Below are positions 44,856-48,930 of a DNA stretch of 64,000 nt, one piece after another (position 1 is the stretch's first letter; each line of letters begins with the position of its first letter). The notes under the pieces are model-generated. The model saw nothing but the letters and a program-made list of their open reading frames with translations. It made no database searches and was not told the origin of the DNA. A program made the position numbers and the translations under genes. Source of the DNA: Pavona decussata (Eukaryota); contig CDRNST010000104.1 in the NCBI GenBank assembly GCA_977016875.1, positions 5,518,001 to 5,582,000 of the forward strand, read 5' to 3'.

Positions 44856-45121
44856 AAGTACCTCGCTCGATGGAGTTCCCTGCTCCCTTCTTTTTTGCTG
44901 ACAAACGTCTCATTGATCACACCATAAAAATCATCAGTGTCCTAGACATGGATCTCTGTGAGTTGATGTGTTACCAGGAGCCCAACTGCGTCAGCTTTAA
45001 CTTCAAAAAGAACTCAGAAAATGGAGAAGTAAAACACAGGTGTGAGTTGAATAACTCCACTCATTTGGAGCACGACAGCGAGTTCAAAGATGATCCATCT
45101 TACTTCTACCGAGGAGCAAAG
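44856..45121 (+). CDS. PAN/Apple-EGF-PLAT gene, PAN/Apple-like exon
   Basis: Acceptor tttctacttcttcag| and donor AAG|gtgagg; encodes KRLIDHTIK..CELMCYQEPNCVSFNF..RCELNNSTH..YFYRGAK, the usual anthozoan PAN-like pattern. Confidence 0.85.
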
Positions 45122-45184
45122 GTGAGGGCAACATAATTTTGACCTTGGAAATCAAACTTCTGATAACAGAAGATTTATGTAAAA

Positions 45185-45285
45185 CGAATGTTTGGTTTAT
45201 CAGCAGAGTTGATAAGGTAATTTGGCCACCGTAAAGGGATTCGAGCGCTGACGTCTCGAGGGTTAGCCTTTCATCTGAGCGACTA
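45185..45285 (-). ncRNA. Decayed minimal hammerhead-ribozyme repeat (Penelope-associated type)
   Basis: Minus strand reads CAGATGAaaggctaaccctcGAGAcgtcagc against the core CUGANGA..GAAA..GUC; two core positions are substituted. Confidence 0.5.
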
Positions 45286-45562
45286 AAACAATTGTGGGTT
45301 ACACTGAATATGCTTTATATAGCGAGCACTGGTGAGAGCATGGTGACTTGGAAAACAAGAATAAACAAGTCGAATGAAAAGCGGTTTTTGATTCCGTGGA
45401 GATTAAGAGTGCCGATTTGTGGCCTTTTGTTTGACCATGATGCTGCGAACTGCCACGGACTGCCGTGTGTTTGAAACAATGGTTAGTCTGGTTAAAGTGT
45501 CGAGCGATTGGTTTGGATACATCTTTGTCATTTTTTCAACGACTCTAACGCCGATATTTTAA

Positions 45563-46270
45563 GGTTACCCTATACCTTCAGAGGTGTCTCGCGTTTAAGC
45601 GATGTAGCGCGTCCAGTTTATACTGTAGATACCTAAACCCTTATATCAAATTAAAGCTTATAGAGCTGGCTATCAAACTATACCAAGAATTTTGAAATAA
45701 AATGAATTGTCAAATTTTTCACGACCTCTAAATGCGAGCGTCCGAATCACCTTTTAAAAGCTACAAGTGAAAGCGAATTTTGTTTCTCGCTAATTTAATT
45801 TGCTCCTCAGTTTTCGGACCCAAAGTGCTAAAAAAACGTCTGCGTTTTGTCATATTCAATCGCAATGAAAAGTTATAGAGCGTTTTCGAAATAGGATGAA
45901 AAAAATGTAAAGTGATCGTACAAAAATTGCTCTCAGAGAAGAAATATTTCGAAAGAAAAAATTCGCAGACACGTTTTTGTTGTTTATATGTTAAACTAGC
46001 TACTGTCCAAATTTGAAGGCAAGCGAACAAATTTCTTTTGAGTTTTAGCTCTTTGAAGTGGCTCCTCCAAGTGAAAAAAATTAATTCGAGAAAACAGCGC
46101 TAGAAATTCGGCAATTCGTTTAATTTCAAAATTCTTGGTTTAGCTTGATAGCCAGCTCTATAAGCTTTAATTTGATATAAGGGTCCTGGTATCTACAGTT
46201 TAAACTGGACCCGCTACATCGCGTGGACGCGAGACACCTTTTAAGACTTCTCTGAAGGTATAGGGTAACC
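45563..46270. mobile_element. Non-autonomous Kolobok-like DNA transposon in the PAN-EGF intron
   Basis: TIRs of about 150 bp starting GGTTACCCTATACCTTCAGA, flanked by TTAA / TTCA. Confidence 0.8.
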
Positions 46271-46351
46271 TTCACGAACTACTCGGTTAATTCATTTGGC
46301 AGGTTAACGAACTAAATTAGTTATTTCTTTACTTTTTTCCCCTTTTCGGAG

Positions 46352-46466
46352 AACGCATGTGGAAAGAAGCTATGCCGGAACAACGGGATTTGCCAGTCAG
46401 GTTTTACAGACAAAGGATATCGTTGCGTTTGTCCGTCGGGATTTGAGGGTCATCATTGTGCAAAGG
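46352..46466 (+). CDS. PAN/Apple-EGF-PLAT gene, EGF exon
   Basis: NACGKKLCRNNGICQSGFTDKGYRCVCPSGFEGHHCAK (six-Cys EGF spacing); phase-0 entry matches the previous exon; donor G|gtaagc; acceptor ttttcggag (GAG, weak). Confidence 0.88.
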
Positions 46467-46599
46467 GTAAGCCTGTTGAGTTTGACAGTTTTTAAAATAG
46501 TATAAAATGTAGGAGTACTTTTTAGCTGTCCTGAGAAACCATTGAATTGAAATCAGAGTTAAAATTGATAATATTGGCAAACCGTTACTCACATGTTTT

Positions 46600-46832
46600 G
46601 GTTTGTCCCACCGTACCCGCAGCACTCTTCGAAAAGAACATGGGATGTAGTCCCCGATGCCTATGGTCTGGCCTTGTTTCCGGAATGGGGGCTGTCACTT
46701 GTTACTTTACTGCCCGCTAAAGTTCCAAATTGCACCCACAAGCAGTCTGTTAAAGTCCCCCACAAAGTGTTGTAAAGTGCATTTGAATATTTTGTAGAAA
46801 ATGAGCTATATAAATTGCATATCATCATCATG
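46600..46832 (+). mobile_element. SINE 3' part with (CAT)n tail
   Basis: gtaaagtgcatttga..gctatataaattgcat(atc)n, an L2-like tail. Confidence 0.5.
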
Positions 46833-47726
46833 AAGGATCACAAAGCACAGCGACCAACATGGGCTCGATGTACAGTTCACTCCGGTTGAGAGAAATATGT
46901 GTTTTACGAATCACTGGCACAGCATGCTCGGAAAAGGAAAATTCCAATTCTCCCAACAGGATTCAAAACTACGACCGCCCGATTACTAGTCTCGATACCC
47001 TACCAGTGAACTTTTGAAATCCTGTGGAAGGATTTAGCTTTTGCTCTGTCACTCTGGACACTACTTTTGTACTCACTAAGATCAATGAGAACTACTTGAA
47101 TTGGTACCTGACTATACTTGTAAGAAGGAAGAATGTGGATTTGAACAAGTCTTGAAAAGTCAAGAAAAATCTGCCATATAGCAGTGGAATTAACGATCCT
47201 CATCTAAACCATGATTATTACGTTATAATTTCCAAATGGCGGCCATCTTGGATCTCCCTAAAATTTCCAGGAGCTTGCAAAAATGACCTTAACCTCATAT
47301 AACCAATAGGGGAAAACAAGAATGAGCGAAAAAAAAAAACAACTAAAAGTTACTATTAGAAATGTCACATGTCTTCACTAAAAAGGAATTAAATATTCCA
47401 ATTTCCAAAAGCACCTATCGTCCAAATTGGGTTGCCACCGTAACATCAAATTTTACCTAACGCTAATCGTGACTTACCATATAATTGGTTTCCGGATAAT
47501 ATTCTAACTGAAAAATGACAAAGTTTGGTTGCAAATGCTCACATGATGGGAAGGTTTTCTCTCTGGCAAGCCCAAACGTTTTGAAATACTGATTCAATTT
47601 GAAATCCGTTGGCTAAAGGAAGATTGTGAGGACGGAATACTGCATAGCTCCCACTTGATCAAAGACCTGTAGCATGGATATCCCCATTTCGTTTTTTTTG
47701 TCATAAACTTACACTTGATTTTTTAG

Positions 47727-47874
47727 TTGAATACTGCGACTACACAATCACTGTGTACACAGCAAACACATTGTGGGCGGGAACTGACGCCAGAGTGTTT
47801 GTGGAGGTATTTGGCCAGATACGAAACTCAGGAGAAATAGAATTGGTAGGAAACAATCCGTTTGAGAAGGGCAG
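47727..47874 (+). CDS. PAN/Apple-EGF-PLAT gene, PLAT/LH2 exon 1
   Basis: ttttttag| ... |gtaagt; VEYCDYTITVYTANTLWAGTDARVFVEVFGQIRNSGEIELVGNNPFEKG fits the PLAT N-half (YxIxVxT, AGTDAxV, FExG). Confidence 0.88.
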
Positions 47875-48190
47875 GTAAGTAGTGGTAGTGATAAAAATAC
47901 AACCTTCCGTAAGAGTTATTACCATATAAGCTTTTGAACAATGTCAGTCTTCTTTGAAATTCACTATGCCTCCCACCACTGTATCACAGCTAATTTGTTT
48001 ATATTTTACGCACGTCTAGCGTCTTATTTAGGTGCAATTATAGCAATGGGGTTGGTGCAGTGTTTACCTGCCTTGCTCCAAATGTTTCCTTATTCAGTAA
48101 AAAGTAGCATTTTCAAATTCCAGTTGAATGTCGACACAAATGCAGGAGAAGTGATGACTTTTTAAAATGCATATCGCTGCTTTCTTTCAG

Positions 48191-48293
48191 TGTGGATACA
48201 TTCAATGTCAATTTACCAAACTTGGGACGACTGACCAAGCTGACCATCAGACACGACAACGGGGGATCTGGGCCGAAATGGATTTTGAGCAAG
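48191..48293 (+). CDS. PAN/Apple-EGF-PLAT gene, PLAT/LH2 exon 2
   Basis: tttctttcag| ... AAG|gtaacc; SVDTFNVNLPNLGRLTKLTIRHDNGGSGPKWILSK carries the PLAT DxF, LGxL, HDNxG, PxW motifs; phase compatible. Confidence 0.9.
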
Positions 48294-48831
48294 GTAACCA
48301 CGCCGTTCTTGTTATCTCTAGTCAGTTGAAATTGCTAACCTGTTACCTCCCATTAGCTTTGGTGGCATTAGTCACAACAATACCCTAAGCCTAAAAAACA
48401 GTAGAAGTGGTGATTCTAAGCCGAAGGATGAAAGGAGAGGTACAAGAGAGGCAGTGTTTCACTGTTGCATTGTTTGGTTTGATATGTGATCCTATAGTAT
48501 ATAGGCATTTTGTTTACGCTTTATCTAAATTCTTTGACTTAATATCAATTTTATTTTCGTCCATAGATATTTTGTTTGATGTTTTTTTAACCCTTAATGA
48601 GCTGGGTAATATTGCATTGCAGTAATCACCCCCTCAAGTTAATTTACGATCTCTAAATATTTGTTATTATTATTTTTGTGCTACTAAAAGTGCTCACACT
48701 TTTTTCCTTTATACCTGCTGATATAAATAAAACCACGAAGGTTGCCAGTGAATCCTTTGGTATTATTTTTAAACAAAATGTAATCCATAATAGTCTGTTT
48801 ATGTAATGAACATTGTTTATTTTTCATCCAG

Positions 48832-48930
48832 GTTCGTGTGCAAAATAGCAAAGAAGGCGTGGAAGTTTCATTTCAGTGCTCATGTGAGCTAAAGGGGGCT
48901 TCCAACATGAAGACGTTGTTTCCGACCTAG
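48832..48930 (+). CDS. PAN/Apple-EGF-PLAT gene, terminal exon
   Basis: ttttcatccag| VRVQNSKEGVEVSFQCSCELKGASNMKTLFPT* completes PLAT (VxV..FxCxC); AATAAA at 49371. Confidence 0.8.
   Translation, partial: VRVQNSKEGVEVSFQCSCELKGASNMKTLFPT

Follow-up and report, generated by a model that had tools for sequence, protein, structure and literature searches.

How did a PLAT domain come to end a protein that begins with a PAN/apple and an EGF domain, and what might it do there? The question is raised by a gene in a stretch of 64,000 nucleotides (nt) from the stony coral Pavona decussata (assembly GCA_977016875.1, contig CDRNST010000104.1, positions 5,518,001 to 5,582,000 of the forward strand; hereafter the window). 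The gene is real; its architecture is apparently undescribed, its origin can be traced and the process behind it, exon shuffling, is a known one. It is not a lone oddity but a member of a large stony-coral PAN-EGF family. We put at roughly 55% the probability that it encodes a secreted PAN-EGF scaffold with an astacin-derived PLAT docking tail, one of several interchangeable recognition tails. The conserved head would then be the scaffold common to the family, and the tail would have been captured from an astacin-PLAT protease gene, would fill the slot otherwise held by lectin and decoy-type modules and, as predicted from its domain family, would dock on lipid membranes or other surfaces.

A six-exon gene with PAN, EGF and PLAT domains

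The window gene comprises six exons (Table 1) that join into 801 nt encoding 266 amino acids, in the order signal-peptide-like leader, PAN, EGF, PLAT. The first-pass annotation, made from the letters alone, had proposed five GT-AG exons of 266, 115, 148, 103 and 99 nt with matching phases, and these are borne out: AG acceptors stand at all five (44856–48930) and GT donors at the first four, and the five join in frame. Its estimate of about 243 stop-free codons holds for the open frame, whose 243 codons include the stop, but that model lacked a start, which exon 1 supplies. By blastn, sequences matching exon 1 recur at 22 further sites within the retrieved paralogue regions. Its leader is hydrophobic (Kyte-Doolittle peak of 2.4 near residues 9–17; hydropathy only), and no 19-residue hydropathy window exceeds 1.01 after it; the leader backs the earlier proposal of a small secreted protein, and secretion is likely. 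A tandem CAG-AAG acceptor at exon 2 gives a possible frame-keeping alternative start at 44859, and the first AATAAA after exon 6 lies at 49371. The exon structure is more than chance, because its splice sites and phases recur in paralogues, where the position of the EGF donor is identical, and because the PLAT-internal junctions are seen spliced in three mRNAs of a related astacin-PLAT gene. Two paralogues have the same open six-exon model.

Table 1. Exons of the window gene, associated intronic features and the related astacin-PLAT gene; positions are those of the window unless a contig is named.
Feature	Position	Strand	Basis
Exon 1: ATG and signal-peptide-like leader, 23 codons + 1 nt, phase-1 GT	40907..40976	+	in-frame join; homologous leaders in paralogues
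Exon 2: PAN/apple domain, 4 Cys, 266 nt	44856..45121	+	Pfam PAN_1 above cut-off
Exon 3: one 6-Cys EGF domain, 115 nt, ends at phase-1 intron	46352..46466	+	Pfam EGF above cut-off
Exon 4: PLAT first part (AGTDA motif, F-E-K-G end), 148 nt	47727..47874	+	Pfam partial match, alignment
Exon 5: PLAT middle (H-D-N and W-x-L motifs), 103 nt	48191..48293	+	Pfam partial match, alignment
Exon 6, coding part: PLAT end and stop, 99 nt	48832..48930	+	in-frame join, alignment
Intron 1: broken fragment of reverse transcriptase, long interspersed nuclear element (LINE) type	43224..44433	-	RVT_1 E 4.3e-15 for open reading frame 43672-44211, and neighbouring open reading frames
Intron 2: element like a miniature inverted-repeat transposable element (MITE), long terminal inverted repeats	45561..46272	.	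142-nt arms 89% complementary, 29-nt arms 93%
Phase-1 'swap' intron between EGF and PLAT	46467..47726	+	blastn segments
Astacin-PLAT protease gene, signal-peptide-like leader and acidic stretch	G000:C57:2043300-2058163		L117, L079, L080

The domain assignments uphold the PAN-EGF-PLAT architecture first proposed for the locus. Pfam places PAN_1 (PF00024; E = 4.7e-8, 33.2 bits against a cut-off of 21.4) and EGF (PF00008; E = 2e-5, 25.2 bits against 21.5) above threshold, the latter with six Cys in EGF spacing (115, 120, 126, 137, 139 and 148). For PLAT (PF01477) Pfam was run on single exons, and the two halves match profile positions 1–47 and 48–85, each singly below the cut-off; the joined domain, scored on a separate profile built from 200 unrelated PLAT domains, reaches 114.8 bits. 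The domain is full-length with its core motifs (Y-x-V-x-T, AGTDA, F-E, D-x-F, H-D, W-x-L and F-x-C), and 26 of the 29 core columns match or nearly match the consensus. Asp171, Glu197 and Asp222, which we take to be putative Ca2+ ligands of PLAT, are retained. The PAN exon resembles Atlas PAN clusters at 0.95–0.96 and matches factor XI apple domains weakly (E = 0.004). Classic apple domains have three disulfides; with only four Cys, the PAN exon is a 4-Cys variant without that full pattern. AlphaFold2 gave low-confidence models both for the PAN alignment (predicted local distance difference test, pLDDT, 39.6) and for P0082 alone (pLDDT 33).

The junction between EGF and PLAT that the annotation had predicted (46466/47727) was not found in contigs of six sequencing runs, nor was any PLAT-internal joint; all six runs include intron sequence, so that expression can be neither claimed nor denied from them. 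One run (X1) has a spliced PAN-EGF joint at exactly the window boundaries, which could derive from paralogues, the junction flanks differing by 0–2 nt. Both points count against a functioning gene of the kind that we favour. X1 also contains 107 nt that match the PAN exon exactly; this piece has at least six mismatches to the other fetched copies but could be DNA. In four runs (X2, X3, X5 and X6), pieces about 91–92% identical extend across PLAT exons and introns and point to the orthologous locus in a related coral. The missing junction contig is also what separate transcripts for the PAN-EGF and the PLAT exons would produce, an explanation that we consider hardly credible: neither between the two exon groups nor close to them is there another tail, start or leader, their phases match, and the order is the same in the four paralogues that have all three parts.

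Exchangeable tails and the likely source of the PLAT domain

The PAN exon has at least 150 matches in the genome at E ≤ 1e-5 (150 scored of 518 candidates). Behind the 21 closest paralogous heads, whose PAN exons are 81–91% identical to that of the window, the tails, assigned from exon order and not from transcripts, are PLAT in five, C-type lectin (Lectin_C) in six and EGF_CA with the uromodulin-type D8C in seven; the remaining three have EGF_CA and then no tail within 9 kb. Pfam confirmed every tail open reading frame (ORF) submitted for lectin (7/7) and D8C (7/7). Four of the five PLAT-tailed paralogues have PAN, EGF and PLAT in the same order, and the fifth has the first PLAT exon only and no EGF. 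The D8C/D10C (uromodulin/GP2) module and C-type lectins thus occupy, in close paralogues, the slot that PLAT holds in the window gene; they are sister tails in other family genes and not parts of this one. The uromodulin module is reportedly a decoy for bacterial adhesins. Twenty more distant loci were hand-picked from the list (10 kb each, with 84 of 361 candidate ORFs sent to Pfam): nine heads have a tail (TLDc in two, one also with LamG; COLFI-like, WSC and D8C in one each; P0001-type in four), and within that scope no tail was seen in the other 11 and PLAT in none of the 20.

The nearest named protein to the PAN exon (one match among 44 candidates) is an 'uncharacterized protein' of Porites lutea (XP_073241348.1, here P0001), which starts like the window gene with a leader, a PAN domain (51% identity) and an EGF but, in place of PLAT, ends in EGF_CA and a domain that Pfam does not match. 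Residues 190–420 of P0001 form a widespread tail without a Pfam hit, also present in L146, L148, L150 and L151, which we presume to resemble 'uncharacterized skeletal organic matrix protein 5-like' proteins. The two TLDc cases are PAN-EGF-EGF_CA heads followed by TLDc exons (G000:C19:2542501-2552500, L133; C266:273801-283800, L135), likely a secreted setting; TLDc is normally an intracellular domain.

The exon shuffling that the first-pass annotation suggested, at the phase-1 intron behind the EGF, gains support from these near-identical heads with PLAT, lectin or EGF_CA-D8C tails and from a likely donor, described below. In a DNA tree of PAN and EGF exons from the window, 20 close paralogues and one outgroup (the EGF-less copy excluded), approximately unbiased (AU) tests reject monophyly of the heads by tail (p-AU of 8e-5 for PLAT, 0.014 for lectin and 6e-5 for D8C). 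The PLAT-tailed heads are not one clade, and therefore heads and tails recombine repeatedly. The head most like that of the window gene, at 92% DNA identity, is one with a lectin tail. In blastn comparisons the swap intron is like lectin-tailed paralogues on its EGF side, up to about 46583 (some 117 nt beyond the exon), and like other PLAT-tailed genes on its PLAT side, from about 47188. One PLAT copy sits behind a much more distant PAN-EGF-EGF_CA head, and two near-copies share its upstream intron. Repeated tail exchange and gene conversion of heads would each fit this pattern; where tails were exchanged, we infer that recombination in the phase-1 intron was the means. Domain shuffling is reportedly known from coral skeletal proteins, to go by the title of one study.

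Where the tail came from is indicated by the last PLAT exon, which has nine matches in the genome. Eight are of PAN type, making the window gene one of nine PAN-type PLAT loci, and the ninth, on contig C57, stands behind an astacin protease domain (Pfam E = 1.6e-44) to which its PLAT is joined through a phase-1 intron. The C57 PLAT is 65% identical in amino acids to that of the window. Anthozoan astacin-PLATs (XP_067043958.1 of Acropora muricata, XP_022782019.1 of Stylophora, QNH72399.1 of Ceriantheomorphe, and C57) belong to the same PLAT subfamily as the window gene; in both, PLAT is C-terminal with the same three exons and phases, whereas the head is a zinc protease in the former and PAN-EGF in the latter. 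No astacin catalytic domain is present in the window gene model, and the PLAT module is the only shared part. A second, more distant PLAT gene lies about 23 kb from the C57 astacin-PLAT tail (G000:C57:2032617-2034007, minus strand).

This association with astacin extends to other species. Among 12 relatives in JGI contigs, three are spliced astacin-PLAT mRNAs, six are genomic with astacin upstream, two have too little sequence upstream and one is distant, and PAN or EGF occurs in none of the 12. Among 11 proteins retrieved with the astacin-type PLAT, nine are astacin-PLAT and none has PAN; named astacin-PLATs come from Acropora, Montipora, Oculina, Orbicella, Pocillopora, Stylophora and a cerianthid, and an Atlas cluster of 54 members, mostly Cnidaria, has Astacin in 100% and PLAT in 96%. 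Astacin-type and PAN-type PLATs group together in one clade, apart from other PLATs (support 99/98), and in a larger tree the cerianthid astacin-PLAT falls outside the remaining sequences (90/88). A four-residue loop is found in 7/7 PAN-type PLATs, as in Acropora, Montipora and C57, with 8–9 residues instead in Oculina, Orbicella, pocilloporid and cerianthid astacin-PLATs. Synonymous divergence (dS) between the window and C57 is 0.49 ± 0.11, compared with 0.71–0.97 from C57 to the astacin-PLATs of other corals.

Other results keep the direction of transfer from being proven: a single clade of all astacin PLATs is not rejected (p-AU 0.36), a first tree placed them in one clade (96/94), the four-residue loop is also found in most generic PLATs (79 of 92 matched), and dS from C57 to the remaining PAN-type copies is 0.71–1.04. 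No single astacin-PLAT emerges from the PLAT trees as sister to the PAN-type clade. The astacin-PLAT gene is nonetheless the likely, though not proven, donor of the window tail, and the transfer would have run from astacin to PAN-EGF, probably within the complex corals. Single-exon ORFs from other assemblies (P0109 and P0124) match PAN-type copies best, and a PAN-type PLAT tail probably exists in related genomes.

The earlier view that PAN-EGF-PLAT had not been characterised stands as far as main texts go: we found no description of it or of astacin-PLAT in the literature (supplements could list such domain strings), including excerpts of PMC12549020, PMC6626399, PMC13581030, PMC8162421 and PMC11269664. 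A protein search with the first PLAT exon, shallow for eukaryotes, gave no match, and a representative protein search was dominated by multi-PLAT proteins; because protein searches are shallow for eukaryotes, absence of the architecture elsewhere is weak evidence. Extracellular, EGF and lectin families are known to have expanded in tandem in corals (excerpts of PMC10236652).

Selection on head and tail, and possible function

The head is under strong purifying selection and the tail is changing fast. The ratio of nonsynonymous to synonymous divergence (dN/dS) for the window head against 12 paralogues is 0.13–0.25 (12/12); the median over 78 pairs of heads is 0.23. For the window tail it is 0.64–0.90 against the six other frame-intact PAN-type PLATs, with values up to 1.8 in other pairs, and 0.46–0.49 against the astacin copy; astacin-PLAT orthologues, by contrast, have conserved PLATs (0.13–0.26). 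The PLAT core is still protected: among three open PLAT copies, 7/29 core columns vary versus 42/87 others (p = 0.03). The most variable tail positions include 165–166, 226–229 and 255–257. When the astacin PLAT is aligned to 5-lipoxygenase, positions 165–166 and 226–229 map to loops of that enzyme that we take to be membrane-facing, and fast-changing loop positions are as expected if the copies were tuned to different surfaces.

Other observations speak against a docking tail under selection. Pairwise tail ratios near 1 are as compatible with relaxed constraint as with diversification. Four of the eight sister PLAT loci are broken; the others comprise two open six-exon frames (one without a PAN cysteine) and two sets of open PLAT exons with partly modelled heads. 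Residue 253 is Glu where PLAT has a near-invariant C-terminal Trp, a residue that 98% of 200 outgroup PLATs and 10/10 other aligned family members have. PLAT domains also vary in membrane binding, according to excerpts of PMC8740744. The broken loci, the high tail ratios, the lost Trp253 and the PLAT junction not found in RNA would all follow from neutral birth-and-death, with the head kept by family constraint or gene conversion, a useless PLAT decaying and the window copy an early pseudogene. We regard this as unlikely, if a serious contender: with a tail dS of about 0.3, the frame of the six exons is still open and every splice site intact, the core columns stay near consensus and vary less than the rest, and the ratio against the astacin copy is below that among PAN-type tails.

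If the tail does function, lipid or surface binding is predicted. The PLATs of polycystin-1 (6a70), 5-lipoxygenase (3o8y), coral 8R-lipoxygenase (3fg1) and 11R-lipoxygenase (3vf1) have sequence family and core motifs in common with the window PLAT, and the related astacin PLAT matches polycystin-1 and lipoxygenase structures at E = 7e-10 to 3e-4. In polycystin-1 and the lipoxygenases the domain is a cytosolic part of a channel or an enzyme, whereas the window PLAT is likely an extracellular terminal module with no enzyme and with Trp253 replaced. A tail that instead binds protein and keeps the targeting of astacin would make the product a non-catalytic decoy, a guide or a cross-linker of matrix or mucus. 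Likely descent from an extracellular protease, the presence of polycystin-1 besides lipoxygenases among the best PDB matches and a family with many EGF_CA spacers of the kind usual in matrix proteins (excerpts of PMC10236652) agree with such a role, but the tail loops diverged quickly from the astacin copy, which argues against the same partner having been kept, and we consider it improbable.

It seems very improbable that the product is an accessory protein of venom or nematocysts directed at the membranes of prey or competitors. The discharge of Nematostella nematocysts contains astacins and, on the basis of one peptide, the PLAT/LH2 protein NEP-15 (excerpts of PMC3627010), and the cerianthid astacin-PLAT is labelled a 'toxin candidate' by its source. 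However, the window protein lacks any catalytic or pore-forming domain, and the labels were assigned automatically or from transcriptomes.

The docking-tail reading leaves room for a role in defence, which the sister tails alone suggest. Extended further, and at present doubtful, the PAN-EGF family could be a germline combinatorial recognition system, in which a constant secreted head would draw on a library of tails from unrelated genes through phase-1 intron recombination and PLAT would be the fast-diversifying, lipid-reading arm that discriminates microbial, symbiont or allogeneic membranes. The library, as we assume it, would include C-type lectin, uromodulin-type decoy, TLDc, LamG, WSC and PLAT. 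Few cases of exon shuffling can be traced as well as this one, with likely donor, recipient family, swap intron and change of selection in one genome; the locus also exposes a very large uncharacterised coral family with a constant head and an exchangeable tail, a concrete candidate for how long-lived corals vary surface recognition.

Surroundings of the gene and further loci

The window gene lies away from its paralogue clusters, which are on other contigs, and is flanked by two related single-ORF genes for rhodopsin-type G protein-coupled receptors (20848-22041 and 53999-55075, both on the minus strand). The MITE-like element in intron 2 has high depth in the sequencing runs. A 286-amino-acid ORF at 36098-36958 (minus strand) resembles a coiled-coil protein of transposon ORF1 type (Baculo_FP, E = 7e-4, below the cut-off).

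Elsewhere in the genome, inverted repeated fragments of the 3′ third of the PAN exon lie between tandem family genes on contigs C365 and C311 of G000 (e.g., C365:41574-41663, minus strand), where they adjoin a distant PAN subtype. Tandem arrays of PLAT exons at G000:C27:320000-334000 and 903000-934000 are probably LOXHD1-like multi-PLAT genes.

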